A DNA stretch of 64,000 bases, taken from the NCBI GenBank assembly GCA_963758635.1, contig CAVWWD010000003.1, forward strand, positions 672,001-736,000, written 5' to 3'. This DNA is from an uncultured Candidatus Rokubacteria bacterium. GTDB taxonomy: Bacteria; Methylomirabilota; Methylomirabilia; Rokubacteriales; CSP1-6. The notes beneath the pieces were generated by a model that saw nothing but the letters and a program-made list of their open reading frames with translations, was not told the origin of the DNA and ran no database searches. Below, one piece after another: positions 16,276 through 58,606 of this stretch; positions within the stretch are counted from its first letter, which is position 1, and every line of letters starts with the position of its first letter. Both the position numbers and the translations under genes were made by a program.

Positions 16276-16434
16276 CTAGCCTGGATTATTAGGTGCGGGC
16301 GCCCGGGCTTCGCCCGCCCGCACCCTGCGCCAACCTCTCCGGGGTTCCACGGGTGGACTCGTCGGGACGGAAGCGCCGGTGCGGGGCCGCGGGCCCGGGC
16401 GGAGGTCCGCGGACGTCCAGACGGCCCTGCTCAT
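16276..16434 (-). other. 52-aa linker ORF between the two kinases (MSRAVWTSAD...NNPG)
   Basis: ATGA overlap with upstream kinase stop, TAG-A-ATG junction with downstream kinase; spans a REP-like palindrome. Confidence 0.4.
16292..16324. repeat. 33-bp REP-like palindrome GGTGCGGGC...GCCCGCACC
   Basis: Copies at 29991-30059 (tandem pair), 45765-45797, 60062-60094. Confidence 0.8.
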
Positions 16435-19373
16435 GCGCGGTGCCTCCGATCCACGTCCACCGGAATGTCGCGGGTCCGGCGCTCCACGCTCCGCGGCACG
16501 GTGAACGCGAACGTGGACCCCCGGCCGAGATCCGATTGCACCCACAGCCGCCCCCCGTGCATGGTGATGATGCGCCGGGCGATGGCGAGCCCGAGGCCGG
16601 TGCCGCCCACCTTGCGTGTGCTCGAGTCGTCCACCTGCTTGAACTCCTCGAAGATCGTCTCCTGGTCGCCGGTCGCGATGCCGGTGCCGGTGTCGGTCAC
16701 GGACACCGTGAACGCGTTGGCGTCCGCCGCCGCCTCGACGCGGATGCGCCCGGCGTCGGTGAACTTGATCGCGTTGCCCACGAGGTTCAGCAGGACCTGC
16801 GTGATGCGCCGCTCGTCCCCGCGCCCCGACGGCAGGTCGGGCGGGATGACGAACGAGAGCTCGAGCTGCTTCTCGGCGGCGAGCGACTCGACGGCCATGA
16901 ACACGCTCTGCATCACTTCCCGCATGGAGTACTCGCCGAGGTTGAGCGTCAGCTCGCCCGCCTCGATCTTCGACAGGTCCAGCACGTCGTTGATGAGGCC
17001 CAGGAGGTGGCGGCCGCTCTTGGCCACGCGCTCCAGGATGCCCCGGATCTTCTCGGGCAGCTCGCCGTAGGTCTCGTCGAGGATCAGCTCGGTGTAGCCC
17101 AGGATGGCGTTCATCGGCGTGCGGAGCTCGTGGCTCATGTTGGCCACGAACTGGCTCTTGGTCCGGTTCGCCATCTCGAGCTGTCGGTTCTTCTCCTCGA
17201 TGGCCTGGAACAAGCGGGCGTTGGCGATGGCCACGGCGGCGTGGAGCGCGAACGTCTGCACGAGCCGCACGGTGTGGGGCAGGATGGGCCGCCCGCTCGG
17301 CTTGTTGTCGCCGGCGAGCACGCCGACGGTGACCCCCCGGGCGATCATCGGCGCGACGAGGAGGCTCTTCGTGCGGATGGCGCGGATCTCCGAGTAGGGG
17401 GGGCGCAGGCGCAGCTCGGGGGGCAGGGGGTTGGCCTCGTTGTAGAGGAGCGGGAGGCCCTCGAGGTAGGCCTTGAACATCACCCCGGCCTCGGGGAGGG
17501 GAATCTCCGCCCCGTCGAAGTCCTTCGACTCGTCGGCGGCGAAGCCGGCCCCGGCCAGGTTCACCAGGCGGTCGGCCTCGGGGCTTACCGCCCAGATGTA
17601 GATCCGGTCGAGGAGCCCCATCTGGCTCGCGCCCTCGAGGACGCGATGGAGCTGCTCGCGGAGCGATAGCGGCTCCTGGAGCGAGGTGGACAGCGTGTAG
17701 AGCTGCTCCATGTTCCGGGACAGCTCCTCGAGACGGCTCTGCTGACTCCGCACCTCGTCGAACAGACGCGCGTTGTCCACGGCCACCTTCGACTGGTTGG
17801 CGAGGGCCACGAGGAGCTTGACCACGCGCTCGTCGAACCGGCCGGGCGCGCGCCGGAACACCACCACGCCGCGGTTGAGGTTGTCGCCGGGGATGGGCGC
17901 GGCGAGGAGCGAGCGGAGCCCCTCGCGCAGGCTCACGTCGCGGACCACGAAGTTCGGCGCCAGCTCGAAGTCGGCGATCTGGAACGGATGGCCGCTCTCG
18001 TACGCGCGCCGGAGAACGCCCTCCTCGGTGTTCACCGGCGTCCGCCGCATCCCCTCGAGGAACGCGGGGCTCAGGTTCTCGCTTGCCAGGTCCAGGAAGG
18101 TCCCGCTCGACCCGCGGTACTCCACGACCATGCCGGCGTCCGCGCCGGACAGCTGCATGGCGTGGCGGATGACGGTGGCGAGGACGTGCTTGAGGTCCAG
18201 CGACGAGCTGACGGCCTGCCCGACCTCGCTGAGCGCGCGCACCTCGTCGAGGGAGCGGGCGAGATCGTGCGTCTTGCCCTCGAGCTCCTCGAACAGGCGC
18301 GCGTTGTCGATGGCGATGGCCGCCTGGTCGGCGAAGATCTTCGACAGCTCGACCTGCCGGTCGGTGAACGGCTGCACGGCCTCGCGCCGGAGCATGATGG
18401 CGCCGGTGGGCACGCCCTCCCGCAGGAGGGGCACGGCGAGCAGCGTGTGGAGCCCGAGGTCGCGGTGGTAGGCGTTGCCCTCGGCGTACTCGCCGGGGGG
18501 TTCGGCGGTGAGGTCGTGCACGTGGATGGGCCGCCGCTCCGCCACCGCCCGGCCCGTCACCGTGCCCCGCGAGGCGGGCAGCACGGCGGGCGTCGGGAGC
18601 GCGCCGACGCCGGCCACCGGACGCAGCACCGTCGCCTCGAGGCGGAACACCACGGCGTCGCGGGCCCCGCACAGACGCGCGGCGTCCCGCGCCACCGCGT
18701 CGAGGACGCGCCGCGCGTCGGTGGGCGCGCTCGACAGGGCGTGGAGGATCTCGCTGGTCGCGGTCTCGCGCTCGAGGGCCTCCGCGAGCTCGCGAGTCTG
18801 GCGCTCAATGGTGCGCCGGTCGTCGATGATCCGCCGGGCCTGGCGCCGGATGAGGAGCGCGAACACGCCGCAGTACACGATGATGCCGGCGATCGAGAGC
18901 CCGGTGGTGAGCGGGCTCGCCTCGGGCTGCACGGTGAACCCGATGATCGCGCCCATGAGGCCGGCGCCGGCGGCGAGCGCGCCGACGCCGCCCGCGGCGA
19001 GGGGCAGCCCCCCGATGCTCAGGAGCGCGATCGTGAGCCCGAGGGCGAACGCCACCGACGGCCAGAGGCTGAAGGCGGCCTGGACGATCCAGCTTCCCGC
19101 GATGAAGCCGTCGACCAGGACGTGGAGGTGCTCGGCGCGGCGGGAGTCGCGGCTCGCGCGGGAGATGGCGAAGGCGACGTGGGGCCAGAGGAGGCCCTGG
19201 GCGAGGAGCGCCATCCACAGGGGCGCGCTCGCTCCGCGCTCGTAGAACACGGAGGACATGATCACCACCATCACCGCGTGGCCGACGGTGCGGATCCGGT
19301 AGTCGAGAAAGACGATCGGATGAATGGGCGTTGCGGTCGGAGCCACCGGCTGAGGGGTGTCCACGCGCTCCAA
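16431..19373 (-). CDS. MASE2-like membrane domain + three GAF domains sensor histidine kinase
   Basis: Hydrophobic N-terminus (LLWPHVAF...RAEH..VLVDG), repeated GAF ends (AIAIDNARLF), H-box ANMSHELRTP, HATPase_c. Confidence 0.92.
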   Translation of the reverse strand: MERVDTPQPVAPTATPIHPIVFLDYRIRTVGHAVMVVIMSSVFYERGASAPLWMALLAQGLLWPHVAFAISRASRDSRRAEHLHVLVDGFIAGSWIVQAAFSLWPSVAFALGLTIALLSIGGLPLAAGGVGALAAGAGLMGAIIGFTVQPEASPLTTGLSIAGIIVYCGVFALLIRRQARRIIDDRRTIERQTRELAEALERETATSEILHALSSAPTDARRVLDAVARDAARLCGARDAVVFRLEATVLRPVAGVGALPTPAVLPASRGTVTGRAVAERRPIHVHDLTAEPPGEYAEGNAYHRDLGLHTLLAVPLLREGVPTGAIMLRREAVQPFTDRQVELSKIFADQAAIAIDNARLFEELEGKTHDLARSLDEVRALSEVGQAVSSSLDLKHVLATVIRHAMQLSGADAGMVVEYRGSSGTFLDLASENLSPAFLEGMRRTPVNTEEGVLRRAYESGHPFQIADFELAPNFVVRDVSLREGLRSLLAAPIPGDNLNRGVVVFRRAPGRFDERVVKLLVALANQSKVAVDNARLFDEVRSQQSRLEELSRNMEQLYTLSTSLQEPLSLREQLHRVLEGASQMGLLDRIYIWAVSPEADRLVNLAGAGFAADESKDFDGAEIPLPEAGVMFKAYLEGLPLLYNEANPLPPELRLRPPYSEIRAIRTKSLLVAPMIARGVTVGVLAGDNKPSGRPILPHTVRLVQTFALHAAVAIANARLFQAIEEKNRQLEMANRTKSQFVANMSHELRTPMNAILGYTELILDETYGELPEKIRGILERVAKSGRHLLGLINDVLDLSKIEAGELTLNLGEYSMREVMQSVFMAVESLAAEKQLELSFVIPPDLPSGRGDERRITQVLLNLVGNAIKFTDAGRIRVEAAADANAFTVSVTDTGTGIATGDQETIFEEFKQVDDSSTRKVGGTGLGLAIARRIITMHGGRLWVQSDLGRGSTFAFTVPRSVERRTRDIPVDVDRRHRA

Positions 19374-19438
19374 TCCAGGGCCGCTCGCTCCCCCGTCGGA
19401 GGGTTCCGGCCGGGCGCGGGAGCGGCGGCTCAGGCGGC

Positions 19439-19467
19439 AGTGTAAGGGCCGAGGGGGGGAGTGTCAA
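19439..19467 (-). promoter_or_regulatory. Putative sigma70 promoter of kinase/cyclase cluster
   Basis: TTGACA-17 nt-TACACT. Confidence 0.7.
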
Positions 19468-19537: not shown

Positions 19538-20896
<1,359 letters not shown>

Positions 20897-23855: not shown

Positions 23856-23934
23856 ATGAGCCTCGCGCATCAGACTAATGCCGAGCGGTGGGACTATAGG
23901 GGCCCGTGGCGTTACCGTATTCTGCGAGGGTCAC
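23856..23934. mobile_element. 80-bp MITE-like element family A, copy 1 (79 bp)
   Basis: TGAGCCTCGC...GCGAGGGTCA terminal inverted repeats; near-identical copies at 31998, 48393, 48475. Confidence 0.85.
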
Positions 23935-25007: not shown

Positions 25008-25451
25008 TCAGGTCTCGAAGAGCACACGAGCCTCGGTGGCTCCTTCGTCGACGACGACCTCAGCCCCATCGGGTGAGGCGGCCCGGAGGGCGAGCTTCAC
25101 GACGTGGCGGGCCGGATCGACCTCCTCGCCGTGGAGCAGCCCGTGGATCCGGAAGGGTTCACCCCCCGGCCGGGGCAGAGGCTCGACCGGGGACACCTCG
25201 ACCCGGCACGCGACGAAGCCCTCCACCTCGTGCACGTACAGGCACTCGTTGAGCCAGTTCACGAGGAGCCGCTCGAGGCTCCCCGCGTGCGCCCGGACCT
25301 CCCGCACGTCTCGCTCCTGGACGTGGTCGGGCTCGACGATCAGGGAAAACATCCCCACGGTGGCCCGCGCGAAGGCTTCGGCGAGGGACGACCCCCGCGC
25401 CCTCACCCCGACCTCCGATCCGGACGAGAAGGGCTCGAATCCCTCGTTCAC
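25008..25451 (-). CDS. Archease-family protein, divergent
   Basis: VGVRARG.SLAEAF, LERLLVNWLNECLY, GEEVDPARH pattern. Confidence 0.8.
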   Translation of the reverse strand: MNEGFEPFSSGSEVGVRARGSSLAEAFARATVGMFSLIVEPDHVQERDVREVRAHAGSLERLLVNWLNECLYVHEVEGFVACRVEVSPVEPLPRPGGEPFRIHGLLHGEEVDPARHVVKLALRAASPDGAEVVVDEGATEARVLFET

Positions 25452-26216
25452 GGAGTCGTCCCGAGGTCCCCGTAGCGAGCCTGCAGGAGCGCGATCGCCA
25501 CAGGCCCCGCGGTCTCCGTCCTCAGGATCCTGGGGCCCAGGCCGGCCAGCACGGCGCCCGCGCCTGCGAGGCGAGCGACCTCCGGCTCGGCGAGGCCGCC
25601 CTCGGGACCCACCACGAGCGTGGCCCGCCGGATGGGACCCGCGGGCAGCCGGTCGGCGAGGAGCGCCTGCTCACCCTCCCAGACGCAGACCATGAGGCCC
25701 CGGTCGGCCGGCTCCTCCAGCCAGGCCGACAGGCCAACGGGTGGCGACACGGTCGGCACCACGGCGCGGCCGCACTGCTTGGCCGCCTCGCGCGCGATCC
25801 GCTGCCAGCGCTCGTGACGGCTCCGCCACCGGTCGCCGTCGGCGCGCGCCACCGTCCGCTCGGAGACGAGGGGCCTGACCGCCGCCGCGCCGAGCTCGGT
25901 GACCATCCGGACGATCAGGTCCATCTTGTCGGACTTGGGCACTGCCCTGGGCGAGCGTCAGGTGGAGCGGCGACTCGCCGCCGCCGGCGCGCTCCGCGAG
26001 CACGAGGCCTGCCGCCGTCCGTGCCGTGACCTCGGTGAGCCGGACGCTCCATTCACGGCCCTGGCCGTCGACGGCCACGACCAGGTCGCCCGCCGTCAGT
26101 CGCAGCACCCGGCTCATGTGGCGGCTCTGCTCGCCGTCGAAGGTCACGTGTCGGGCGCCGGCGTCGAGGCCGCTCAGCACGAAGCGCGGGGCCCGCCCCG
26201 TCGGCTCACCGCTCAT
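25448..26216 (-). CDS. rsmE: 16S rRNA m3U1498 methyltransferase; one frameshift at about 25943
   Basis: HMSRVLRL...LTLAQG in one frame; PKSDKMD...TELG, EAAKQCGR, VGPEGG, LGPRILRTETA in the next. Confidence 0.93.
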
Positions 26217-27154
26217 GCGCGCCGCAGCAGCACCGACGACCAGCCCTCGATGACGACGCGTCCGTCCGGCGCGAACCCGGCCGGGCCGAGGCGCATCGCC
26301 ACCTCGGCGTCCTCGCCGTCGAGCATCCCGCCGAGGACGATCGCGCCCCCGGGCGCGACGATCCGCGCGTACGCGGCGGCGAGGGCGAGGTGCGTGTGCG
26401 TGAGCAGGTTCGCCAGCACGAGGTCGAACTCGGCGCCCGGCGCCGTCGCCTCGATGCCCTCGAGCGCCAGCTCGATGGCGTCGGCGCATGCGTTGAGCGC
26501 GGCGTTTCCGGCGACGGCGGCCAGCGCGTCCGGATCGATGTCGATGGCGCGCACCCGCGGCGCGCCGAGCTTCAGCGCGGCGATGGCGAGGATGCCGGTG
26601 CCGGTCCCCACGTCGAGCACGCGGCGGGGCGCCGATCCCGGGCGCCAGCGGCCAGCCTCGGCGTCGAGGAGGGCGAGGCAGCCCTCGGTGCTGCCGTGGT
26701 GCCCGGTGCCGAAGGCGCGGCCCGGCTCGATGACGACGGCGATCCGCGACGACGGCGCCCGCTCGGCCCACGGCGGCAGGACGACGAGACGCTCGCCGAT
26801 CTCCCGAGGCGGGAAGGACTGCTGCCATGCGCTCGCCCACTGGGCGTCGAGGAGGGGGCTGATCTCGGCCGCGCGCCCGCCCACGCCGAAGCCGAGCGCG
26901 GCGAGGGCAGCCCGGTAGGCGTCGACGGCGGCGAGGAGCTTCGTGGACGACCGGTCCTCCGGATAGAACGCGCGCAGCCGCGGCGGCTCGCCGGGCAGCT
27001 CCTCCTCGACCACGCCCAGCGCGCCCTGCTCCCAGAGGAAATTCGTGAGGCCTTCGGTGGTCTCGGCAGACGTGGGGACGCGCAGCTCCCAGAAGCTGGG
27101 CCTCGGCGCGGCGGGAAGCGGCGCGGGGGTGGCTCCCGTTCCGCCGGAGGGCAT
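26213..27154 (-). CDS. prmA: 50S ribosomal protein L11 methyltransferase
   Basis: IEPGRAFGTGHHGST, VLDVGTGTGILAIAA, DID, VLANL; dnaJ-prmA-rsmE synteny. Confidence 0.93.
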   Translation of the reverse strand: MPSGGTGATPAPLPAAPRPSFWELRVPTSAETTEGLTNFLWEQGALGVVEEELPGEPPRLRAFYPEDRSSTKLLAAVDAYRAALAALGFGVGGRAAEISPLLDAQWASAWQQSFPPREIGERLVVLPPWAERAPSSRIAVVIEPGRAFGTGHHGSTEGCLALLDAEAGRWRPGSAPRRVLDVGTGTGILAIAALKLGAPRVRAIDIDPDALAAVAGNAALNACADAIELALEGIEATAPGAEFDLVLANLLTHTHLALAAAYARIVAPGGAIVLGGMLDGEDAEVAMRLGPAGFAPDGRVVIEGWSSVLLRRA

Positions 27155-27251
27155 CAGGACCCGAAGAGCTTCTTCATGTCGATCCGGGCATCAGGACCCG
27201 AAGAGCTTCTTCATGTCGATCCGGGCATCAGGACCCGAAGAGCTTCTTCAT
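27149..27251. repeat. 37-bp tandem repeat (2 full units + 29 bp) duplicating the dnaJ/prmA junction
   Basis: Unit GGGCATCAGGACCCGAAGAGCTTCTTCATGTCGATCC at 27149, 27186, partial at 27223. Confidence 0.95.
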
Positions 27252-28319
27252 CCGGTCGAGCCAGCCCGTGATGAGCGGTCCCGACTCGTCCTTCGAGGAC
27301 TGATGCAGCTCCTCGAGCAGCTCGCGCTGCCGCGCGGTGAGGCGCGTCGGCACCTCGATCGCCACCTGGTACACGGCGTCGCCGTGACCGCGGCCGCGCA
27401 GATGCGGCATGCCCTTGCCACGCAGGCGGATCTGCTCGCCGGGCTGGGTGCCCGCAGGCACGGTGAGCGTGGCCTTGCCGCCCAGCACCGGCACCTCGAC
27501 CTCGGACCCGAGCGCGGCCTGGGGGAACGTGATCGGCAGCTCGCACAGGAGATCGGCGCCGCGGCGCAGGAAGATCTCGTGCGGCTTCACGTGGATCACC
27601 ACGTAGAGGTCGCCGGCCGGGCCACCGTGGATGCCGCCCTCGCCCTCACCCGAGAGCCGGAGCTGGTTGCCGTCCTCGACGCCGCCCGGGATGGTGACGT
27701 TCAGGAGGTGCTCCTTGCGCTGGCGCCCCTGGCCCCGGCACTCCTTGCAGGGGTTCTTGAGGATCTGCCCTTCGCCCCCGCACGTGGGGCAGGGCCGGGC
27801 GACGGTGAGGAAGCCCTGGGAGAAGCGGACCTGTCCCTGACCGCGGCACGACGTGCAGGTCTCCGGCTTGCTCCCCGGCTGGGCGCCGGTGCCGCGGCAG
27901 GCGTCGCACGTCTCGTGGCGCGGGATCTGGAGCTTGGTCTCGATCCCCGCCGCCGCCTCCTCGAGCGTGATCTCGAGGTTGTACTGCAGGTGCTCGCCCC
28001 GGCGCGCGTGCGATCGCCGGCCACGCTCGCCGCCGCCGAAGAAGCCCTCGAAGAGATCTTCGAAGATGGTGCCGAAGCCCGCGTCGCCCGCCGCCGGCCC
28101 GGAGACGGTGCCGAAGCGGTCGTACTGCGCGCGCTTGTCGGGGTCGGAGAGGATGGTGTACGCCTCGCTGACCTCCTTGAAGCGCTCCTCCGCGGCCTTG
28201 TCGCCGGGATTGCGATCGGGATGGTGCATCCGGGCGAGCTTGCGGTAGACCCGCTTCAGCTCGGCCTCGTCCGCGTCCCTCGATACGCCGAGGATGGCGT
28301 AGTAGTTGGGGCCGGCCAC
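27228..28319 (-). CDS. dnaJ: Chaperone DnaJ
   Basis: J-domain HPD, four CxxCxGxG zinc-finger repeats, GDLYV C-terminal domain. Confidence 0.98.
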
Positions 28320-29990: not shown

Positions 29991-30059
29991 GGTGCGGGCA
30001 CCCGGCCTTCGGCCGCCCGATCACCAGGTGCGGGCACCCGGCCTTCGGCCGCCCGCACC
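29991..30059. repeat. Tandem pair of REP-like palindromes upstream of hrcA
   Basis: GGTGCGGGCACCCGGCCTTCGGCCGCCCG twice; same family as 16292. Confidence 0.8.
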
Positions 30060-30131
30060 GTGCGTCGACACATCGCGTGTGGTGTGCGCGTTCAGGATAC
30101 GCTCGCTCGCACCTCGCGTAGTCGGACCCGA

Positions 30132-31319
30132 CTAGACCAGCTCTGAGAACAGGGTGTCGGAGAGGAGGAAGCCGTCCTCGGTGAGGTGGACGCGGCCGGC
30201 GGTGTGCCGGAGGAGGCCGAGATCGGTCCACGAGGCGATCACCGAGGGGAGACGGCCGGGGTCGAGGTCGATGCGCTCGTCGAGCCAGCTCTCCGGAACG
30301 CCCTCGACGAGGCGGAGGCCCAGCATGAGGCGCTCGGCCAGAGTCTGACGGGGCGTGAGGCGCTCGTGAGTGGCCACGGGCAGCCGACCGCTCTCGAGCG
30401 TGGCGCAGTAGCGCTCCACGGCCTTGACGTTGCCGTACCGGACGCCGCCGAGGTAGCCGCAGGCGCCGGGACCGAGGGCCAGGTACTCCTCGGCGTGCCA
30501 GTAGATCTGGTTGTGCTGGGAGCGCCGGCCCGGCCCCGCGTAGTTCGAGACCTCGTAGTGCTCGAGCCCGGCCGCGCGCGTCCGGCGTGTCAGGGCCCGG
30601 TACTGCGCCGCCGCCTCGTCGTCGGAGGGGAGCCCGGCCGTGGTCTCGGGGCGCCAGAGGCTGCCCTCGTCGAGGGTGAGCGCGTAGGCGGAGAGATGGT
30701 CCGGCCGCCACGCGAGCGCCTCGTCGAGCGTCCGCTCCCAGGCCCCCGCGCCGAGCTCCGGCAGGCCGTACATCAGGTCGAGGCTCACGTTGTCGAAGCC
30801 GGCCGCGCGCGCCGCCGCGAAGGCCTCACGCGCCTGGGCCGCGGTGTGGAGGCGGTCGATGCGCGGCAGGAGCGCGTCGTCGAGGGTCTGCACGCCGAGG
30901 CTGATGCGGCTGACGCCGGCGGCCCGGAAGCCTTCGAGCCGCTCGCGCGTGAGGCCGTCGGGGTTGCATTCCACGGTGACCTCGAGGCCCGCCGCGAGCG
31001 ACAGGCGCGCGCGCAGGCGGTCCAGGATGGCCGCGAGCTGCTCGGGCGCGAGCAGCGACGGCGTGCCGCCGCCGAAGAACACGGTGGACGCGCGCACCGC
31101 GGGCGCCCATCCCGCCTCGGCCGCCGCGTCGATCTCGGCGAGGACGGCGCGGACGAAGCGCGGGACCGCGCGCTCGAGGTAGGGGGCGGTGTTGAACGAG
31201 CAGTAGCCGCAGCGCTTGATGCAGAACGGGACGTGGACGTACACGCCGAGCGCGGACGCCCGCGGTGTCCAGTCGAGGACGGGCCGGTCCGGGGTTGCGG
31301 CCCCGCCTACGGCAGCCAC
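30132..31319 (-). CDS. hemW: Radical SAM haem chaperone (HemN-like)
   Basis: YVHVPFCIKRCGYCSFN, GGGTPS, YEVSNY, HNQIYW; lepA-hemW-hrcA synteny. Confidence 0.93.
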   Translation of the reverse strand: MAAVGGAATPDRPVLDWTPRASALGVYVHVPFCIKRCGYCSFNTAPYLERAVPRFVRAVLAEIDAAAEAGWAPAVRASTVFFGGGTPSLLAPEQLAAILDRLRARLSLAAGLEVTVECNPDGLTRERLEGFRAAGVSRISLGVQTLDDALLPRIDRLHTAAQAREAFAAARAAGFDNVSLDLMYGLPELGAGAWERTLDEALAWRPDHLSAYALTLDEGSLWRPETTAGLPSDDEAAAQYRALTRRTRAAGLEHYEVSNYAGPGRRSQHNQIYWHAEEYLALGPGACGYLGGVRYGNVKAVERYCATLESGRLPVATHERLTPRQTLAERLMLGLRLVEGVPESWLDERIDLDPGRLPSVIASWTDLGLLRHTAGRVHLTEDGFLLSDTLFSELV

Positions 31320-31990
31320 TGCGCCAGCCGGCGCCAGCGCATCCAGTGCCGGTCCGCGTCCCAGGACCAGTAGATCAGGAAGGCCTTGCCACGGATCTTC
31401 TCGCGCTTGACGAAGCCCCAGTAACGGCTGTCCTGGGAGTTGTCCCGGTTGTCGCCCATGACGAAGTACGACCCGGGGGGCACCGGGATCGGATCGCAGC
31501 CGTAGAGGTACCCGCAGTGCGTGGACGGCACGCTCGGGATCGATCCCGGCCGCACGTGCGGCTCGGTGATGGCCTGGCCGTTCACGAAGACGCGGTTGTC
31601 GCGCACCTGCACGGTCTCGCCCCCGACGGCGACGATGCGCTTGATGAAGTCGCGCGACTCGTCGTTCGGGTACTTGAACACGACGATGTCGCCGCGGACG
31701 GGATCCCGGAGCCCCGGCAGATGGGTGTCGGTGAAGGGGATCTCGGCCCCGTACAGGAACTTGTTGACGAGGATGTAGTCGCCGATGAGCAGCGTGTCCA
31801 TCATCGAGCCCGACGGGATCGTGAAGGCCTGCACCACGAAGGCCCGGATCACGAGGGCGAGGAGCACCGCGACGACGATCGCCTCGCCGTACTCCCGGAC
31901 GAGCGACTTGCGGCGCGGCCGGGCGATCTCCTCCGCCGGGGCGGGCGTGGGGGCCGGGGCGGTGTCGGGGCGTGTCTCGGTCTCGTTCAC
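31307..31990 (-). CDS. lepB: Signal peptidase I
   Basis: IPSGSM, GDYILVNK, FIKR, GDNRDNSQDSRYWG. Confidence 0.97.
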   Translation of the reverse strand: MNETETRPDTAPAPTPAPAEEIARPRRKSLVREYGEAIVVAVLLALVIRAFVVQAFTIPSGSMMDTLLIGDYILVNKFLYGAEIPFTDTHLPGLRDPVRGDIVVFKYPNDESRDFIKRIVAVGGETVQVRDNRVFVNGQAITEPHVRPGSIPSVPSTHCGYLYGCDPIPVPPGSYFVMGDNRDNSQDSRYWGFVKREKIRGKAFLIYWSWDADRHWMRWRRLAQWLP

Positions 31991-31997
31991 TCGCCTA

Positions 31998-32076
31998 CTG
32001 AGCCTCGCGCATCAGACTAATGCCGAGCGGTGGGATTGTAGAGGCCCGTGGCGGTGACCGTATTCTGCGAGGGTCA

Positions 32077-32077
<1 letters not shown>
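31998..32077. mobile_element. 80-bp MITE-like element family A, copy 2, inside the lepA stop codon
   Basis: Flanked by TA at 31996-97 and 32078-79; terminal inverted repeats. Confidence 0.88.
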
Positions 32078-33867
<1,790 letters not shown>

Positions 33868-33920: not shown

Positions 33921-34976
33921 TCAGGCCGTCACGCGCGCGCCGTCGGGCACGACGGCGCCGGACGGGACGACCGCGCCCGCGTCGATCTGGGCGCGCGCGC
34001 CGATCCGGGCCCCCGCGCCAACCACGCAGTCGGCGAGGCGCGCCCCGGCGCCGACCGAGACGTCGTCCCAGAGCACCGTCCGCTCCACGACCGCGCCCGC
34101 ACCCACGACGCAGCCGTCGCCGAGGACGGCGGCGGGGCCCACTCGCGCGCCGGCGGCGACCCGGCAGCGCGCGCCGAGCACGACGGGCGCGTCCACGCGA
34201 GCGGCGGCGTCGATGTCGGCTCCCGCGCGCGCGTCGGTCGCCGCCGCCGGGGGCGCCACGCGGCTTCCGACACGACCGGCGAGGAGGTCGAGCTGGCCCT
34301 GGAGGTACTTGGCGGGGCTGCCGATGTCGAGCCAGTAGTTGTCCGCGACCCAGCCGTGGAACGGGATGCGGTCCTCGAGGAGCGCGGGGAAGAACTCGCG
34401 CTCGATCGACACCGGCCGTCCGGTTGGAATGCGCTCGAGGAGCGCGCGGTCGAGGGCGTACACGCCGGCGTTGATGGTGTCGGTGGTGATCAGCGTCGGA
34501 TCCGGCTTCTCGAGGAAGCGCGCCACGCGGCCGCCGTCGCCGAGCTCCACCAGGCCGTAGGCGCGGGGATCGGCCACCCGCGTCAGGTAGATCGTGGCCG
34601 CCGAGCCGCGCTCCCGGTGGAAGCGCAGCATGGCGCCGAGGTCGATGTCGGTGAGGACGTCGCCGTTCAGCACCACCACGAGCCCGTCCACGAGGCCGGC
34701 GGCGTTCCGCACGCCGCCCCCCGTGCCGAGCGGCTCCACCTCGACGGCGTAGGCCAGCCGCACGCCGTAGCGGGAGCCGTCGCCCATCGCGCGCTTCACC
34801 TCGTCGACCATGTAGGAGCAGGACAGGACCACGTCGCGCACGCCGTGCTCGCGGAGCAGCGCGAGCTGGTAGGCGAGGAACGGCACGTTGAGCAGGGGCA
34901 CGATCGGCTTCGGACGGGTGAGGGTGAGGGGGCGGAGCCGCGTGCCCTGGCCGCCGGCGAGGATGACCGCGGTTAT
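33921..34976 (-). CDS. NDP-sugar synthase (mannose-1-phosphate guanylyltransferase-like); start uncertain, possibly ATA
   Basis: AVILAGGQGTRLRPLT..RPKP, EPLGTGG, NGD, FLEKP, WLDIG, C-terminal hexapeptide repeats. Confidence 0.9.
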   Translation of the reverse strand: MTAVILAGGQGTRLRPLTLTRPKPIVPLLNVPFLAYQLALLREHGVRDVVLSCSYMVDEVKRAMGDGSRYGVRLAYAVEVEPLGTGGGVRNAAGLVDGLVVVLNGDVLTDIDLGAMLRFHRERGSAATIYLTRVADPRAYGLVELGDGGRVARFLEKPDPTLITTDTINAGVYALDRALLERIPTGRPVSIEREFFPALLEDRIPFHGWVADNYWLDIGSPAKYLQGQLDLLAGRVGSRVAPPAAATDARAGADIDAAARVDAPVVLGARCRVAAGARVGPAAVLGDGCVVGAGAVVERTVLWDDVSVGAGARLADCVVGAGARIGARAQIDAGAVVPSGAVVPDGARVTA

Positions 34977-35143
34977 CGGCCGGGCGTCCAGGGCGTCGCC
35001 TCGCTGACGAGCATGACGGGGATGCCGTCGCGGATCGGGTACGCCTTCTGGCACTTCGGGCAGATGATGCGTGTCTCCTCGAACAGGAGGTCGCCCTTGC
35101 ACGCCGGGCACGCGAGGATGGACTTGAGCTCCTCGTCGATCAT
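34973..35143 (-). CDS. Trm112-family (UPF0434/YcaR-like) small protein
   Basis: MIDEELKSILACPACKGDL...CPKCQKAYPIRDGIPVML; AAGGAG RBS. Confidence 0.9.
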   Translation of the reverse strand: MIDEELKSILACPACKGDLLFEETRIICPKCQKAYPIRDGIPVMLVSEATPWTPGR

Positions 35144-35166
35144 GGTCTGAGCTCCTTCTTGCGGAC

Positions 35167-35249
35167 GTGACGAATGGAGATGTGCCACGCCGCGTGGACG
35201 CAGAATCGCGATGTCGGCCCGCTCGCCGACGTCATCCGCATGTCTTCAC
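35167..35249. repeat. Diverged ~85-bp dispersed repeat family C, copy 1
   Basis: Core ACGCAGAA.CGCG.TGT.GGCCC.CTCGCCGACGT..ATCCGCAT shared with 38477-38561 (inverted) and 47271-47357. Confidence 0.7.
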
Positions 35250-36167
35250 GGCCTGCCTGAAGAACTCGAAGGTGCGGGCCAGCCCCTCGTCGAGCGACAC
35301 CGCGGGGACCCAGCCGAGGAGCCGGGCGGCGCGCCCGGGGGCGAGGCAGCTCCGGCGCTGCTCCCCCGGCCGCGCGGGGCCGCGCTCGGCCTCGACGCGC
35401 ACGCCGGCCACGCGGCGGAGACGGCCATAGAGGTCGTTCACGGTGGTCTCGACGCCGGTGCCGATGTTGATCCCGCCGTCGACCTCGGGGCGATCGAGGG
35501 CGCGCACGTTCGCCGCGGCCACGTCCTCGACGTACACGTAGTCCCGCGTCTGCTCGCCGTCGCCGTTGACGATGGGCGGCTGGCCGGTGAGGAGGCGGTG
35601 GCAGAAGATGGCCACGACGCCCGCTTCGCCCTGGGGGTTCTGGCGGGGCCCGTAGACGTTGGCGTAGCGGAGCGACACCGCACGGATGCCGTGGATCGCC
35701 TTCCAGGCCGCGGCGTAGTGCTCCATCGCGACCTTGGTGATCCCGTACGGCGAGGCGGGCAGGCTCGGATGCTCCTCCGGCGTGGGGATCACGTCGGTGT
35801 CGCCGTAGCCGGCGCCGCCGCTCGACGAGTAGATGAGCTGGCGCACGCCGGCCCGCCGGCAGCACTCGAGCAGGTTCAGGCCGCCCATCACGTTGACACT
35901 GGCGTCGAAGGCGGGGTCCACGACGGACCGCGACACCGCGGCCTGCGCGGCGAGGTGCGCCACCGCCTCCGGCCGCTCCACCGCGAACACCTCGGCGAGC
36001 CGCGCGCTCCGGAGGTCGACCACGTGCAGCCGCGCCGCGGAGTTGACCAACGCCGCGCTCCCCGTGGCGAGGTTGTCCACCACCGACACGTCGTGGCCCC
36101 GTCCCACGAACGCGTCGACGACGTGCGACCCGATAAACCCCGCGCCGCCCGTGACGAGGATCCTCAT
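35232..36167 (-). CDS. NAD-dependent epimerase/dehydratase (UDP-glucose 4-epimerase-like)
   Basis: [44 protein letters not shown]. Confidence 0.93.
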   Translation of the reverse strand: MRILVTGGAGFIGSHVVDAFVGRGHDVSVVDNLATGSAALVNSAARLHVVDLRSARLAEVFAVERPEAVAHLAAQAAVSRSVVDPAFDASVNVMGGLNLLECCRRAGVRQLIYSSSGGAGYGDTDVIPTPEEHPSLPASPYGITKVAMEHYAAAWKAIHGIRAVSLRYANVYGPRQNPQGEAGVVAIFCHRLLTGQPPIVNGDGEQTRDYVYVEDVAAANVRALDRPEVDGGINIGTGVETTVNDLYGRLRRVAGVRVEAERGPARPGEQRRSCLAPGRAARLLGWVPAVSLDEGLARTFEFFRQAVKTCG

Positions 36168-36198
36168 GCGATCGATCCACCGCCGGCGACCAGGATCC

Positions 36199-36202
<4 letters not shown>
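36164..36202 (-). other. 12-aa linker mini-[15 protein letters not shown] (diverged duplicate of next gene's start)
   Basis: ATGA overlaps at both ends; ATGAGGATCCT repeated with 35-bp period. Confidence 0.6.
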
Positions 36203-37128
<926 letters not shown>

Positions 37129-37139: not shown

Positions 37140-38450
37140 TCACTCGGGCGTGACGGCCCGACGCCCGATGGAGTGGTACTCGAAGCCGAGGCGCCGCATC
37201 CGCCCGGGCTCCCACAGGTTGCGCCCGTCGAAGACGATGGGGCGCCGGAGGAGCCCATGGAGGCGTTCGAGGTTGAGGAACTTGAACTCGTTCCACTCCG
37301 TGACGAGGACGAGCGCGTCCGCGCCGTCCGCGGCGGCGTAGGGCGAGTCGCAGAACGTGACGTCGGCGGGCACGAGGGGCCGGGCCTTGGCCATGGCCAC
37401 GGGGTCGTACACCTTGATCGCCGCGCCTTCGGCGTGGAGCGCCCCGATCACGTCCAGGCTCTTCGCCTCGCGGACGTCGTCGGTGTTGGGCTTGAAGGCC
37501 AGGCCGAGCACGGCGATGGTCCGGGCGGCGAGCGGGTCGAGCGCCTTCTTGACACTGGCCACGAGGTGCGCGGCGCGGCGCTTGTTGATCTCCGCCACCG
37601 AGCGCAGCAGCTTGAAGTCGTGGCCGAGCCGGGCCGCGGTGTGGACGAGGGAGTCCACGTCCTTGGGGAAGCACGAGCCGCCGTAGCCGAGGCCGGGCTG
37701 CAGGAAGGCCTGGCCGATGCGCGAGTCGAGCCCCATGCCCTTCACGACGTGGGTCACGTCGGCGCCCGCCGACTCGCAGAGGTCGGCGATGGCGTTGATG
37801 AACGAGATCTTCGCGGCGAGGAAGGCGTTGGAGGCGTACTTGATCATCTCCGCCGACGGGAGGTCGGTGATGATCATGGGCCGCTCCAGCGGCGCGTAGA
37901 GCTCGACCAGCTTCATCGCCACCTGCTGGGTGGGCGCGCCGATCACGATGCGGTCGGGGCGGAGGGTGTCCTCGATGGCGGAGCCCTCGCGGAGGAACTC
38001 GGGGTTCGAGACCACGTCGAACTCGACGGGCGTCGCCTGGTTGCGCGCGATGACCTCGCGCACGAGCTCGCCCGTGCCCACCGGCGACGTGGACTTGTTC
38101 ACCACGACCTTGTAGCGGTCCATGCAGCGTCCGAGCTCGGTGGCCACCGCCTCCACCTGGGAGAGGTCCGTCTCGCCGTCGTCCTTGGCCGGCGTGCCGA
38201 CGGCGATGAAGATCACGTCGGAGCGGCGGACGGCGTCAGGGAGCTCGGTGGTGAAGGACAGGCGCCCGTCCTGCGCGTTGCGGGTGACCATCTCCTCGAG
38301 GCCGGGCTCGTAGATCGGCATCTGTCCGGCCCGCAGGGCCTCGATCTTGGCCGGCACCGCGTCCACGCACACCACGTCGTTGCCGAGGTCGGCGAAGACG
38401 GCGCCCGTGACGAGGCCGACGTATCCGGTGCCGACCACGCAGATGTTCAT
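37140..38450 (-). CDS. ugd: UDP-glucose 6-dehydrogenase
   Basis: [50 protein letters not shown]. Confidence 0.96.
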
Positions 38451-38476
38451 GAATGTCCGATCTTATCAGACGCGTT

Positions 38477-38561
38477 GTGACGGAACGTGGATTTCGGCTT
38501 CGCCGTGTGGGCCAACGCCGCGTTCTGCGTGCATGCGCGAAGCGGTGTCGCCATGCATTCC
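38477..38561. repeat. Dispersed repeat family C, copy 2 (inverted)
   Basis: Reverse complement aligns by eye with copies at 35167 and 47271. Confidence 0.65.
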
Positions 38562-38564
38562 AGC

Positions 38565-39518
38565 TCAGAGGACATGGCGCGCGAGACGCTCGCCGACGAG
38601 CGCGACGAAGAGCAGGAGCAGGTACACGTTCGAGAACAGGAAGAGCGCGAGCCAGCCCCGCTGGTCCTCCGGATGGCGAGCGAAGCGCGTCGCGAGCCTG
38701 ATCAGGCGGAAGCCCAGGAGCGCGGCGGCGACGAGCGAGACGGGCCCGCCGAGGCCGAACGTGGGCGCGGCGAGCGAGAGCGCGGTGAGCCCGAAGGCGT
38801 AGACCAGGATGAGCCGCGCCGTGCCGTCCACGCCCACCGCCTCGGACACCATCGGGAACCCGCCCGCCGCGTAGTCGGCGCGGTAGCGCAGGGCGAGCGC
38901 CCAGAAGTGCGGCATCTGCCAGAGAAACAGGATCCCGAAGAGGATCACCGCGCCGGCATCGCCGAGGCCCCCGCCACCCGCGACCCATCCGATGACCGGC
39001 GGCAGGGCGCCCGGCACCGCGCCCGGCACCGCGGCGAACGACGAGTGGACCTTCAGCCAGGGGGTGTAGACGCCGTTGTAGAACGCGGCGGCGAGGAGCC
39101 CGAGGGCGCCCGCGGTCGGGCCCACGGCGAACCAGAGGAGGGCGGCCCCCGCGGCGATGCCGAGCCCCGCGAACAGGCTGCCCTGCGCGAGCGACAGGCG
39201 CCCCGACGGCAGCGGCCGGCCGGCCGTCCGGGCCATCAGCGCGTCGCGCCGGCGCTCCTGCACCTGGTTCAGCGCGGACGCGCCGCACGACAGGAGCATC
39301 ACGCCGGACAGCATCGCGAGGCCGCGCCGCCACGGGAAGTCGGGGCCCAGCGGGGCGGCGAGCATGAAGCCCGCCGCCGCCGACACGAGGACCAGCGTGA
39401 CGATCCCGAGCTTCGAGAGCTCGGCGTAGGCGCTCACGTGCGTGCCGACGGCGCCGCGCCGCCGGTCCGTGTGGCCGTCGCCGATGGCGCTCTCGCGGGG
39501 CGGCGGGCGCTCAGGCAC
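38565..39518 (-). CDS. ctaB: Protohaem IX farnesyltransferase (haem O synthase)
   Basis: ALNQ..ER..DALM.RT..RPLPSGR, YTPWLK, GALPP.IGW, WQMPHFWALA...DYAAGGFPM. Confidence 0.95.
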   Translation of the reverse strand: MPERPPPRESAIGDGHTDRRRGAVGTHVSAYAELSKLGIVTLVLVSAAAGFMLAAPLGPDFPWRRGLAMLSGVMLLSCGASALNQVQERRRDALMARTAGRPLPSGRLSLAQGSLFAGLGIAAGAALLWFAVGPTAGALGLLAAAFYNGVYTPWLKVHSSFAAVPGAVPGALPPVIGWVAGGGGLGDAGAVILFGILFLWQMPHFWALALRYRADYAAGGFPMVSEAVGVDGTARLILVYAFGLTALSLAAPTFGLGGPVSLVAAALLGFRLIRLATRFARHPEDQRGWLALFLFSNVYLLLLFVALVGERLARHVL

Positions 39519-45764: not shown

Positions 45765-45797
45765 GGTGCGGGCGAGCGAAGCCCGGGTGCCCGCACC
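45765..45797. repeat. 33-bp REP-like palindrome
   Basis: GGTGCGGGCGAGCGAAGCCCGGGTGCCCGCACC. Confidence 0.8.
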
Positions 45798-45806
45798 TTG
45801 GTGACG

Positions 45807-48392: not shown

Positions 48393-48554
48393 TCGAGCCC
48401 CGCGCATCAGACTAATGCCGAGCGGTGGGATTGTAGGGGCCCGTGGCGGTTACCGTATTCTGCGAGGGTCATTAGTGAGCCTCGCGCATCAGACTAATGC
48501 CCGAGCGGTGGGACTACAGGGGCCCGTGGCGTTACCGTGTTCTGCGAGGGTCAC
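48393..48554. mobile_element. Two tandem 80-bp family A MITE-like copies (48393-48472, 48475-48554)
   Basis: TA before, between and after the two copies. Confidence 0.88.
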
Positions 48555-54645: not shown

Positions 54646-54652
54646 GCGGCCC

Positions 54653-56395: not shown

Positions 56396-56418
56396 CGGGA
56401 GCCCGCGGCGGCGGCATC

Positions 56419-56451
56419 GGGGGCGCGGCTCGGCCGCGCCCCCTTTTTGTT
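56419..56451 (+). terminator. Intra-operon stem-loop / terminator after SBP gene
   Basis: GGGGGCGCGGC-TCG-GCCGCGCCCCC then TTTTTGTT. Confidence 0.75.
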
Positions 56452-56518
56452 GGGTGCTTGGGCGGCTCTGACGATCGTCCGGGCATGACGCTCGTCCGGC
56501 GGTGACGCGGGTCCACCC

Positions 56519-57442
56519 ATGACGCTCGCCCTCGAGCAGGCGCTGAACGGCGTCCAGTTCGGCGTGATGCTCTTTCTGATGGCGGCCGGGCTCACGCTCG
56601 TGTTCGGCATCATGAACCTGGTGAACCTCGCCCACGGCTCTCTCTACATGGTCGGGGCCTACCTCGCGACGACCTTCTCCCAGTGGACGGGATCGTTCGT
56701 GCTCGCCGCGCTCCTCGCGCTGGCCGGCACGCTCGTCGTGGGCGCGGCGGTGGAGGCCGTCGCGCTCCGCACCCTCTACGAGCGCGACCACCTGGACCAG
56801 GTCCTCGCCACGTTCGGCCTCATCCTGTTCTTCAACGAGCTGGTGGCGATCGTGTGGGGCCGCGCCGCGCTCTACACCAGCCTGCCGAAGTGGCTCTCCG
56901 GCCACGTCATGGTGCTCCCCGGGGTGCGCTATCCCGCGTACCGGCTCGTCGTGATCCTCGTCGGGCTGGCGGTGGCGGCGCTCCTGTGGTTCGTGGTGAC
57001 GCGCACGCGGCTCGGGATGCTGATCCGCGCGGGCGCCAGCAACCGGACGATGGTGGCGGCGCTGGGCATCAACGTCCGTTTGCTCTACACGGTGGTGTTC
57101 GGCGGGGGCGCCGCGCTCGCCGGGCTCGCCGGCCTCATGGCGGGGCCCATCTACGCCGTCCAGCCGGGGATGGGCGAGCAGATCCTGATCCAGGTGTTCG
57201 TGGTCATCGTGATCGGCGGCATCGGCTCGATCCGCGGCGCCCTCGCGGGGGCGATCGTCGTGGGCATGGTGGACACGCTGGGCCGCGCCTTCCTCAAGCC
57301 CGCCCTCGCCACCGTGCTCTCGCCCACGGCGGCGGAGAGCGCGGGCCCCGCGCTCGCCTCCATGCTGATCTACCTGTTGATGGCGGCGGTGCTGGCCATC
57401 CGGCCCGAGGGGCTGTTCCCCGCGGCGGGGCGCTCGGCGTGA
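56519..57442 (+). CDS. livH: Branched-chain amino acid-type ABC permease
   Basis: GLTLVFGIMNLVNLAHG, G..IRA, FVVIVIGGIGS. Confidence 0.92.
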   Translation: MTLALEQALNGVQFGVMLFLMAAGLTLVFGIMNLVNLAHGSLYMVGAYLATTFSQWTGSFVLAALLALAGTLVVGAAVEAVALRTLYERDHLDQVLATFGLILFFNELVAIVWGRAALYTSLPKWLSGHVMVLPGVRYPAYRLVVILVGLAVAALLWFVVTRTRLGMLIRAGASNRTMVAALGINVRLLYTVVFGGGAALAGLAGLMAGPIYAVQPGMGEQILIQVFVVIVIGGIGSIRGALAGAIVVGMVDTLGRAFLKPALATVLSPTAAESAGPALASMLIYLLMAAVLAIRPEGLFPAAGRSA

Positions 57443-58380
57443 GCGTGTCGCCGCGGACGGCCGTCCTCGCCGCCGGCCTGCTCGCGCTCGCGCTGGTGCC
57501 GGTGGCGGCGGCCGCGCTCCAGCAGCCGTTCTACGTGGACCTCTTCCGCCGCATGATGATCTTCGCCATCGCCGCGGTCAGCCTCGACCTCGTCCTCGGC
57601 TACGGCGGCATGGTGAGCTTCGGCCACGCCGCGTACCTGGGGATCGGCGCCTACGCGGTCGGGATCCTCGCGCACCACGGGATCGCGAGCGGCTTCCTGC
57701 AGTGGCCGCTGGCCATCGGGGCCTCCGCCCTGCTCGCGCTGCTGATCGGCGCGGTGAGCCTGCGCACCAGCGGCGTATCGTTCATCATGATCACGCTCGC
57801 CTTCACCCAGATGCTGTACTACCTCGGGATCAGCCTCGAGGCGTACGGCGGGGACGACGGGATGCGGCTGCCCGCGCGGAGCCAGTTCGGGGGCCTCGTC
57901 GACCTTCGCGACCCCGCCGCCTTCTATTACGTCGTGCTCGGCATCCTCGTGGGCTTCGTGCTGCTCGGCCGGCGCCTCACCGAGTCCCGCTTCGGCATGG
58001 TGATCCGCGGCGCGCGCTCGAACGAGCTGCGCATGCGGGCCATCGGCTACACGACGTTTCCGTACAAGCTCCTCGCCTTCGTGGTGGCCGGCGCGATGTG
58101 CGGGACGGCGGGCGCGCTGCTCGTCAACCAGACCGAGTACCTGACGCCGGAGTTCATGCACTGGACGCGCTCGGGCGACATCATGTTCATGGTCATCCTG
58201 GGCGGGATGGGCACGCTGGTGGGGCCGGTCATCGGCGCGATCGCCTTCCTGCTGCTCGAGGACCTCCTGTCCGCGTGGACGGTCCACTGGCAGATCATCC
58301 TGGGCCCGGTGCTCGTGCTCGTGGTGCTGTACGCGCGCCGAGGGCTCGCCGGGCTGCTCCCGGGAGGCGGCGGTGGCTGA
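57439..58380 (+). CDS. livM: Branched-chain amino acid-type ABC permease
   Basis: GYGGMVSFGHAA, FIMITLAF, GGDDG, SRFG, MVILGGMGT. Confidence 0.92.
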   Translation: MSVSPRTAVLAAGLLALALVPVAAAALQQPFYVDLFRRMMIFAIAAVSLDLVLGYGGMVSFGHAAYLGIGAYAVGILAHHGIASGFLQWPLAIGASALLALLIGAVSLRTSGVSFIMITLAFTQMLYYLGISLEAYGGDDGMRLPARSQFGGLVDLRDPAAFYYVVLGILVGFVLLGRRLTESRFGMVIRGARSNELRMRAIGYTTFPYKLLAFVVAGAMCGTAGALLVNQTEYLTPEFMHWTRSGDIMFMVILGGMGTLVGPVIGAIAFLLLEDLLSAWTVHWQIILGPVLVLVVLYARRGLAGLLPGGGGG

Positions 58381-58606
58381 GCCGCTCCGCCGCTCCCACG
58401 GGGGTGGCGGTGGCTGAGCCGCTCCGCCCTTCCCACGGGGGTGGCGATGGCTGAGCCGCTCCGCCCTTCCCACGGGGGTGGTGATGGCTGAGCCGCTCCG
58501 CCCTTCCCACGGGGGTGGCGATGGCTGAGCCGCTCCGCCCTCCACGGGGTGGTGATGGCTGAGCCGCTCCGCCCTTCCCACGGGGGTGGTGATGGCTGAG
58601 CCGCTC
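58373..58606 (+). repeat. Tandem repeat of six units (37,37,37,37,34,37 bp) duplicating the livM/livG junction
   Basis: Unit ATGGCTGAGCCGCTCCGCCCTTCCCACGGGGGTGGCG; unit starts at 58373, 58410, 58447, 58484, 58521, 58555, then livG at 58592. Confidence 0.97.

Follow-up and report, generated by a model that had tools for sequence, protein, structure and literature searches.

Duplications of gene junctions at which stop and start codons overlap were found to leave, almost without exception, a chain of short open reading frames (mini-ORFs) across the newly created gap in a soil Rokubacteria genome. We found 26 such duplications genome-wide at a similarity score of at least 10, a threshold chosen after the data had been seen; 6 were in frame, and 19 of the remaining 20 were bridged, compared to 51% (uniform breakpoints) to 67% (7–8 nt microhomology) of duplications simulated on 573 real overlapped junctions (P = 3e−5 to 3e−3). 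Duplication therefore provides both stop/start links, and selection likely fixes the reading frame. Judging from these sequence comparisons, bridging probably persists since frame-breaking copies of overlapped junctions are removed by selection. At each convincing site, a gene junction that was already overlapped has been duplicated or has received an insertion.

Bridged junctions in the window

The analysis started from a window of 64,000 nt, and all site coordinates are positions in this window (Table 1). Bridging was called strict when a gap was crossed by a chain of mini-ORFs with every stop/start link at −4, −1 or −8. Gene starts were taken from our own gene caller, and several of them are visibly late. 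Of the 28 co-directional gaps of 13–300 nt, 4 were strictly bridged, rising to 6 if the last stop was allowed to lie 0–4 nt ahead of the next start. The first-pass annotation had listed six junctions whose extra DNA reads as overlapping mini-ORFs: those at 27154, 35140, 36164 and 58373 are strictly overlapped, while the far ends at 16276 and 31995 fall 1 and 4 nt short. Relatives have the gene pairs of all four strict sites in direct overlap.

Table 1 Features discussed in the text, by position in the window
Feature	Position	Strand	Remark
52-aa open frame between two histidine kinase genes	16276..16434	-	weak case
prmA-like L11 methyltransferase gene, downstream of 27154-27228	26213..27154	-	NCBIfam below cut-off
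37-bp junction unit, duplicated twice	27154..27228	-	sequence and reading frames
mini-ORF, 7 aa	27154..27177	-	
mini-ORF, 5 aa	27174..27191	-	
mini-ORF, 7 aa	27191..27214	-	
mini-ORF, 5 aa	27211..27228	-	
dnaJ, upstream of 27154-27228	27228..28319	-	NCBIfam over cut-off
signal peptidase I gene, downstream of MITE	31307..31990	-	NCBIfam over cut-off
78-bp MITE (about 31999-32076) in lepA stop	31995..32077	-	
lepA, upstream of MITE	32077..33867	-	NCBIfam over cut-off
56-aa gene, downstream of 35140-35235	34973..35143	-	
31-aa mini-ORF	35140..35235	-	links −4/−4
GalE-like epimerase gene, upstream of 35140-35235 and downstream of 36164-36202	35232..36167	-	
35-nt duplication of −4 junction, 12-aa mini-ORF	36164..36202	-	
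NAD-dependent sugar epimerase/dehydratase gene, upstream of 36164-36202	36199..37128	-	
copy of the ~100-copy repeat found at 35140	38447..38575	-	not a relay
LivM/UrtC-type ABC permease gene, upstream of 58373-58599	57439..58380	+	
tandem array of six junction units, of which five are 37 nt and one is 34 nt	58373..58599	+	
LivG/UrtD-type ABC ATPase gene, downstream of 58373-58599	58592..59338	+	

Between dnaJ and the prmA-like gene, the mini-ORFs encode MPGST and MKKLFGS, each followed by a stop and each present twice, with links of −1, −4, −1, −4 and −1. The inner overlap which rescues this array relies on a Met codon that pre-existed in the gene tail. The same pair overlaps directly by 1 nt in the relatives' DNA (L002, L003, L004, L007, L015, L018 and G003/G004), and a DNA contig of run X2 agrees with the array through the second copy with one mismatch. 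The closest relatives of the DnaJ protein mostly carry Rokubacteria or Methylomirabilota labels. At 36164-36202 both links are −4 and the mini-ORF is a copy of the downstream gene's N-terminus; G004 has a direct −4 overlap at this junction and G016 has a different 32-nt insert, likewise in relay frame. The array at 58373-58599 holds six mini-ORFs of 13–14 aa with all links at −8, and its gene pair has a direct −8 overlap in all eight relatives possessing both genes. A clear Shine–Dalgarno (SD) motif is absent from these three sites, including ahead of the prmA-like start.

The fourth strict site, 35140-35235, arose differently. A copy of a dispersed repeat with about 100 copies (about 35165-35250) landed close to the end of the GalE-like gene, whose stop codon now lies inside the repeat; the last ~25 nt of the insert are the upstream gene's old tail and carry an AAGGAG SD. 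A repeat variant which is 3 nt shorter, found in 1 of 16 scorable copies, provides the first ATGA link. G016 and G004 have a direct −4 overlap here. The downstream gene, whose product we take to be Trm112-like, retains its own SD.

The inserts had initially been described as unrelated in sequence, comprising junction duplications, a MITE, and REP-like and family C repeats. This description was corrected: the units at 27149 (2 hits) and 58373 (its own array plus one 17-nt hit) are local tandem junction copies belonging to no dispersed family, and the end of the 35140 insert is old gene tail. In the weak case at 16276-16434, the frame stops 1 nt short of the next ATG and contains a dispersed hairpin and an AT-rich patch ahead of the start; a promoter scan of this site gave no consensus promoter and no orthologous junction was found in relatives. 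The copy at 38447-38575, once suggested as a weaker relay, was dropped: two ATGs could open its frame, lying 11 nt ahead of the upstream stop's end and 10 nt past it, so that the first link is not −4, −1 or −8, and relatives have an uncoupled gap of 46–69 nt at this position. An Rfam search of the window gave 0 matches and, among the RNA contigs listed for run X8, one of four runs compared as contigs, none spans a junction.

Duplications of overlapped junctions

A duplication spanning an overlap by itself repeats the stop/start motif at both ends, and the length of the unit then sets whether the outcome is in frame, in relay frame or off frame. The first-pass annotation had warned that duplicating an overlapped junction partly makes the pattern automatically; in simulation, 51–67% of duplications are bridged. 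The near-absence of off-frame unbridged duplications is what departs from the simulation. Changing the score threshold gave 23 of 26 bridged at a score of at least 8 and 15 of 15 at a score of at least 12, and leaving out the three sites of the first-pass annotation gave 16 of 17 (P = 2e−4 to 0.01). Off-frame units were rescued by an inner overlap in 3 of 4 cases, compared to 0–5% in simulation. In the relatives' DNA, 3 of 4 junction duplications were bridged.

The pattern might instead be purely a by-product, in which both links survive duplication, frames stay open owing to high GC and breakpoints in codon register favour the relay frame, with no selection involved. We judge this to be unlikely, although it is the strongest of the alternatives. 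The rise in the simulated bridged share with longer microhomology is a real register bias, relay-frame duplications are 93–97% open by construction, the sample is of 20 duplications, and about two thirds of the bridged gaps genome-wide are expected by chance (74.7 of 112). However, 19 of 20 lies above even the 67% null (P = 0.003), as does 16 of 17 (P = 0.01). Duplications whose first start has decayed numbered only one, itself relay-frame; a hidden pool of off-frame copies was therefore not apparent. Selection for the continued passage of ribosomes between neighbouring genes is the likely reason why surviving duplicates are nearly always bridged.

Bridging across the genome and in relatives

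Spaced junctions are mostly unbridged in this genome (131 of 1580 bridged). We found an excess of bridging in gaps of 13–120 nt (112 of 1060 vs 74.7 expected under a two-class frame-swap null) and none in gaps of 121–300 nt (19 of 520 vs 19.7 expected under the frame-swap null); for gaps of 30–250 nt, 85 were bridged vs 64.8 expected (two-class swap). Bridging therefore exceeds chance for the shorter gaps and for junction duplications, and not for gaps above 120 nt. In the relatives' DNA (2.74 Mb in 140 loci, with G003 predominating) the excess was weaker, at 31 of 421 bridged vs 22.1 expected, with no excess in gaps of 121–300 nt (4 of 212 vs 7.2) or 30–250 nt (23 of 454 vs 22.3). Two other types of null were set aside. 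Shuffling the gap interior (85 of 1188 bridged vs 66) preserves both links and the frame and is therefore a weak test of bridging. Frame nulls deleting 0–2 nt overstate the excess because they count in-frame outcomes, which real data absorb as longer genes, and the two-class swap was used in their place. We also rejected the idea that relays come from frameshifted gene tails, as the bridging frames fail to score as coding and the upstream genes end in their own frame.

The frame excess depends on the upstream stop carrying a start codon (odds ratio 2.6 vs 1.2 for CTGA, TAA or TAG ends, z = 2.4). When junctions were compared between orthologous pairs, those overlapped in the relative and spaced here were bridged in 7 of 13 cases (7 of the 8 keeping both links), compared to 7 of 112 others, the latter figure excluding 2 long-overlap rows of which 1 was bridged; when the roles were exchanged, bridging was seen at 2 of 13 junctions that are overlapped here and spaced in the relative. 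This comparison misses the dnaJ and 35140 junctions and drops pairs with tails above 45 aa, and its counts are small because of the limited amount of relatives' DNA.

Selection could also act against interference: a ribosome restarting in the wrong frame would overrun and block the downstream start, so that off-frame copies would be purged even if the downstream gene initiates by itself. The same scarcity of off-frame copies is predicted, and relays ahead of genes with their own SD would be accounted for, as at 35140 and in the stratum defined by a 5-nt SD motif, where the excess is not, as had been predicted, concentrated in genes lacking an SD (odds ratio 2.9 without vs 3.7). Defining the SD by a 4-nt motif, however, puts the excess in downstream genes without an SD (odds ratio 4.3 vs 1.5), and 27154, 36164 and 58373 have no clear SD. 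We think interference somewhat less likely still than the by-product explanation.

Dispersed repeats

The gap between lepA and the signal peptidase I gene is 3–5 nt in relatives and is here occupied by a short, many-copy element with inverted ends and a target duplication, which makes it a MITE. Alignment of 174 hits left 167 full-length copies, of which 84 are 78 nt long, with CTAG-type flanks on both sides. TA/CTAG targets are linked with IS630-type transposases. In one orientation only, the consensus reads from the left flank as 21 aa, a −1 link and 5 aa to the duplicated TAG; at 31995 the 21-aa and 5-aa frames run from the left flank to this TAG, which is 4 nt short of the GTG start.

If the MITE and other repeats had evolved built-in relays, in the manner of the mycobacterial MIRUs, they would be non-polar when inserted at stop codons. 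The single-orientation consensus points that way, as does the presence of the relay orientation at 52 of 74 co-directional stops vs 6 of 25 convergent ones (P = 1e−4) and of an intact chain in 22 of 52 sense vs 2 of 22 antisense copies at co-directional stops. Against this, the orientation ratio does not change with distance to the next gene (28:13 when near vs 24:9 when more than 60 nt away, P = 0.8), the opposite bias at convergent sites (P = 0.015) is predicted by an outward promoter or terminator and not by a relay, 77-nt copies, which break the relay, are as common as 79-nt copies, which keep it (30 vs 32 of 167), and, of 15 tight sense copies, only 6 have a chain extending to the next gene. 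For the ~100-copy repeat of 35140 and 38447, bridging was seen in 4 of 70 co-directional gaps. A transcription-level cause fits the orientation bias at least as well as a relay, and we regard an evolved mobile strategy as improbable. The suggestion that unrelated inserts share the relay property in general was accordingly abandoned, and selection or the insertion mechanism, which had been offered as its cause, holds up for duplicated overlapped junctions and not as a system across unrelated inserts.

It is very improbable that assembly indels or mis-called starts mimic relays at ordinary overlapped junctions, since, despite apparent frameshifts in the assembly and imperfect start calls, frameshifts occur at about 0.018 per kb (a lower bound, from 20 split orthologs in 1243 ORFs), the coding scores and upstream gene ends given above argue otherwise, and the duplications are plain repeats, one of them matched by an independent contig.

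Proposed mechanism

Under selection for an unbroken frame, a ribosome finishing the upstream gene would reinitiate on the start codon that overlaps its stop, translate the mini-ORF and then reinitiate once more at the downstream gene. If this hand-over were lost, downstream translation would drop and the RNA would be exposed to Rho, the gene for which was found in the genome. In E. coli, a 38-nt gap lowered reinitiation by 80–100%, according to a passage in PMC10666635. The mini-ORF peptides are likely by-products. Selection would thus act as a filter on accidents; this is not one dedicated system, because the ~100-copy repeat is rarely bridged and fewer than half of the relevant MITE copies have kept their relay.

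Relation to known systems

The layout itself is already known from mycobacterial MIRU repeats, which were reportedly treated by Supply et al. in 1997. Passages of PMC12548453 and PMC3184786 describe MIRUs as a dispersed family of 40–100 bp and about 40–50 copies, lying in the intergenic DNA of operons, holding a small ORF whose ends overlap its neighbours, proposed to spare downstream expression and presumed to move by transposition, with 4-nt direct repeats. The four strict sites likewise have one or more small same-direction ORFs overlapping both flanking genes. Unlike MIRUs, the best cases here are local tandem junction copies without shared sequence, have links of −4, −1 and −8, and occur in Rokubacteria and not in mycobacteria. 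At 27149 and 58373 the copies are local, and the families at 31995 and 35140 are mostly unbridged. MIRU insertion involves a start codon, a 4-nt direct repeat and −4 spacing, whereas 27154, 36164 and 58373 are longer tandem duplications, 35140 was inserted within the upstream gene's tail and the MITE sits in CTAG-type flanks.

Termination-reinitiation coupling at −4, −1 and −8 overlaps is described in parts of PMC12548453, PMC10666635 and PMC6728339. The same spacings are found at 27154, 35140, 36164 and 58373 and at the ancestral junctions, but not at the far ends of 16276 and 31995, nor at 38447; unlike known coupling, the putative hand-over is repeated through up to six throw-away ORFs. A word search of a bioRxiv paper on short overlaps (10.64898/2026.09.10.750558) found no mention of duplication or insertion. 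In uORF delivery and bicistronic designs, a short ORF brings the ribosome to the next start (PMC12548453, in part); those ORFs initiate on their own, whereas the putative relays here start from the upstream gene's stop. The comparison class for the 78-bp element is that of bacterial MITEs, as outlined in part of PMC3184786: it resembles them in its short inverted ends, CTAG-type flanks, 167 copies and stop-codon location, and differs in the two-step reading chain in one orientation of the consensus.

It is possible, if doubtful, that selection on the frame of duplicated junctions leaves a general, countable footprint of coupling in vivo, with off-frame copies purged, that chains of up to six untranscribed-looking mini-ORFs are truly translated, that the census maps reinitiation-dependent junctions in uncultured bacteria and that the MITE is a second, independently evolved MIRU-like element. 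The scale is a few dozen junctions per genome and new molecular machinery is not involved. Annotators should be aware that relay gaps may yield short peptides. With a 12-codon relay that a single base can break, the junctions would make natural test constructs for telling reinitiation from RNA unfolding as the way coupling works. If our reading is right, the MIRU idea would reach beyond a single mobile family and cover duplicated overlapped junctions of any kind, and there would be population-level evidence that stop/start overlaps carry ribosomes in an unculturable lineage.

Strict mini-ORF chains (putative relays) at operon junctions

We read frames from the sequence at seven intergenic inserts, looking for relays in which mini-ORFs are chained from the upstream stop to the downstream start by stop/start overlaps (links) of -4, -1 or -8. 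Strict chains were found at four of the seven sites, and 4/28 gaps of 13-300 nt in the window were strictly bridged. The first-pass annotation had described six sites with an overlap at the upstream stop and an overlap or abutment at the downstream start; overlaps at both ends hold for the four tabulated here, but the chain at 16276-16434 ends 1 nt before the next start and that at 31995-32077 ends 4 nt before it. Its weaker case, 38447-38575, is not a relay, as it lacks an overlapping first link and the gap is uncoupled in relatives.

Strictly bridged junctions in the window
Feature	Position	Strand	Organisation
dnaJ-prmA array	27154-27228	-	37-nt unit (dnaJ end and prmA start) duplicated twice
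	36164-36202	-	35 nt repeating the -4 junction
	58373-58599	+	six units repeating a -8 overlap
	35140-35235	-	dispersed repeat in the upstream gene's tail, supplying a new stop; mini-ORF continues through the former gene end as far as the original overlap

The first three junctions are seen as direct overlaps in relatives: of 1 nt for dnaJ-prmA (six relatives), of -8 at 58373-58599 (8/8 relatives having both genes) and in relative G004 at 36164-36202, where relative G016 has a different 32-nt insert, likewise in the relay frame. One of the six units at 58373-58599 is 3 nt shorter and still in frame, a homopolymer error being possible. At 35140-35235 the old overlap is still present in G016 and G004, and the first link is a 3-nt-shorter repeat variant found in 1/16 scorable copies.

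PrmA has about 18 additional N-terminal codons (about 27098-27151, minus strand) relative to G003 and G004; these are a second insert at the dnaJ-prmA junction, taken up in frame. Several gaps share a short GC-rich hairpin (16292-16340, about 30040-30100, 60060-60095 and 45765-45800), which has 107 short matches across the genome.

Genome-wide bridging

The source genome (6.17 Mb, 12 contigs, 72% GC), whose DnaJ has nearest relatives carrying mostly Rokubacteria/Methylomirabilota labels, was annotated with a gene caller trained on itself, with a start model free of any overlap or relay term. This gave 5104 genes; among co-directional pairs, 536 overlap at -4 and 89 at -1. Late start calls for some genes add noise; the frame class of a gap is set by the stop and the downstream frame alone, so that the choice of start is irrelevant. 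Genes at 25448-26213, 7617-8880 and 60041-60962 are apparently frameshifted (by assembly error or really), because the called gaps are filled with coding-like sequence.

Using a null which swaps only the two out-of-frame classes, we found 112/1060 gaps of 13-120 nt bridged (74.7 expected) and 92/1188 of 30-250 nt (69.2 expected). Bridging exceeded the null in these ranges, but not at 121-300 nt (19/520 bridged, 19.7 expected). In 2.74 Mb of DNA from three relatives, mostly G003, 31/421 gaps of 13-120 nt were bridged (22.1 expected), with no excess at 30-250 nt. Cut-off gene tails were rejected as the source of the bridging frames because these are not coding-like. The frame excess was tied to a start codon on the upstream stop, with an odds ratio of 2.6 for ATGA/GTGA ends vs 1.2 for CTGA, TAA and TAG ends. 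ATGA was present at 8-14% of TGA stops where a co-directional gene followed after a gap of up to 600 nt, vs 5% at convergent ends, an enrichment to which missed genes possibly contribute.

A mannose-1-phosphate guanylyltransferase-like gene (34976-34973, minus strand) apparently begins at a non-standard codon that shares a -4 overlap with the stop of the preceding gene. Where the profile begins, the source genome and G003 have ATA, G016 has GTA and G004 has CTG, which would fit reinitiation on near-cognate starts; some CTGA controls may therefore be true links.

Junction duplications and the mutational control

A gene pair counted as a junction duplication if its downstream start showed a second copy of the overlap motif with the surrounding sequence (score ≥ 10). 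Six of the 26 were in frame, and 19 of the remaining 20 were bridged. As a mutation-only control, we simulated 15-50 nt duplications over 573 real overlapped junctions: 51% were bridged with uniform breakpoints and up to 67% with microhomology breakpoints, which favour codon register. The real duplications surpass either figure (P = 3e-5 and 3e-3), and still do when the three already singled out in the first-pass annotation are dropped (16/17 bridged; P = 2e-4 and 0.01). Off-frame units were rescued by an inner overlap in 3/4 real cases vs 0-5% of simulations, and a search tolerating a decayed first start added one further duplication, in the relay frame.

Where a relative has an overlapped junction that is spaced in the source genome, 7/13 were bridged vs 7/112 others, a contrast owed largely to inherited links; the reverse comparison gave 2/13. 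One G003 locus (L167, around 7637 on the minus strand) holds an unbridged junction duplication of three copies, each with its own SD-like GGAGG.

Mobile repeats

The 78-bp MITE at 31999-32076 has 167 full-length copies with CTAG-type flanks; further copies lie at about 23858-23934 and as a tandem pair near 48394-48554. Its end creates a start codon on any preceding stop, and the first link is therefore automatic; in one orientation the consensus then gives a 21-aa frame joined by a -1 link to a 5-aa frame that ends at the duplicated TAG. This relay-reading orientation was found at 52/74 co-directional stops (52:22) vs 6/25 convergent stops (6:19). A promoter or terminator effect accounts for the bias at least as well as a relay, because it is independent of distance to the next gene and opposite at convergent ends, and relay-breaking MITE lengths are common.

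The approximately 100-copy repeat at 35165-35250 and 38460-38560 bridged only 4/70 co-directional gaps. Convergent gaps hold few copies (4), compared with 27 in divergent and 70 in co-directional gaps, and one orientation predominates (49:21); the repeat may be a promoter- or leader-like element. An additional palindromic repeat, with arms CCCTCACCC and GGGAGAGGG, lies in several gaps of contigs C12, C6 and C8. The proposal that selection or the insertion mechanism maintains hand-over is supported for duplications of overlapped junctions, where selection probably acts on the frame, but not as a general property of unrelated inserts such as the MITE and the approximately 100-copy repeat.

Discussion

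This analysis established ancestral overlaps, duplicated links, a frame bias beyond the mutational null and a rho gene. Ribosomes would restart at every stop/start overlap along the chain, and duplicate copies which strand them would be removed by selection. Published work gives -4, -1 and -8 as favoured coupling spacings (PMC12548453) and reports that a 38-nt gap left three E. coli pairs with 80-100% less reinitiation (PMC10666635). Selection may instead oppose off-frame ribosomes overrunning the downstream start, rather than favour delivery; the outcome of stratifying bridging by SD varies with the SD motif chosen.

Mycobacterial interspersed repetitive units (MIRUs) are described as carrying an ORF with translational coupling to the neighbouring gene, and their insertion is considered to disturb expression little (PMC12548453, PMC3184786). 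The relays would work similarly, by a coupled ORF between genes. However, they are not MIRU members, because the best sites share no common sequence, are not dispersed and lie in a non-mycobacterial host. Our literature search, which covered few subscription papers, found no published account of frame selection among duplicated overlaps. The relay feature of this genome, backed by a genome-wide count plus a mutational control, is a variant of a known layout, real yet modest.
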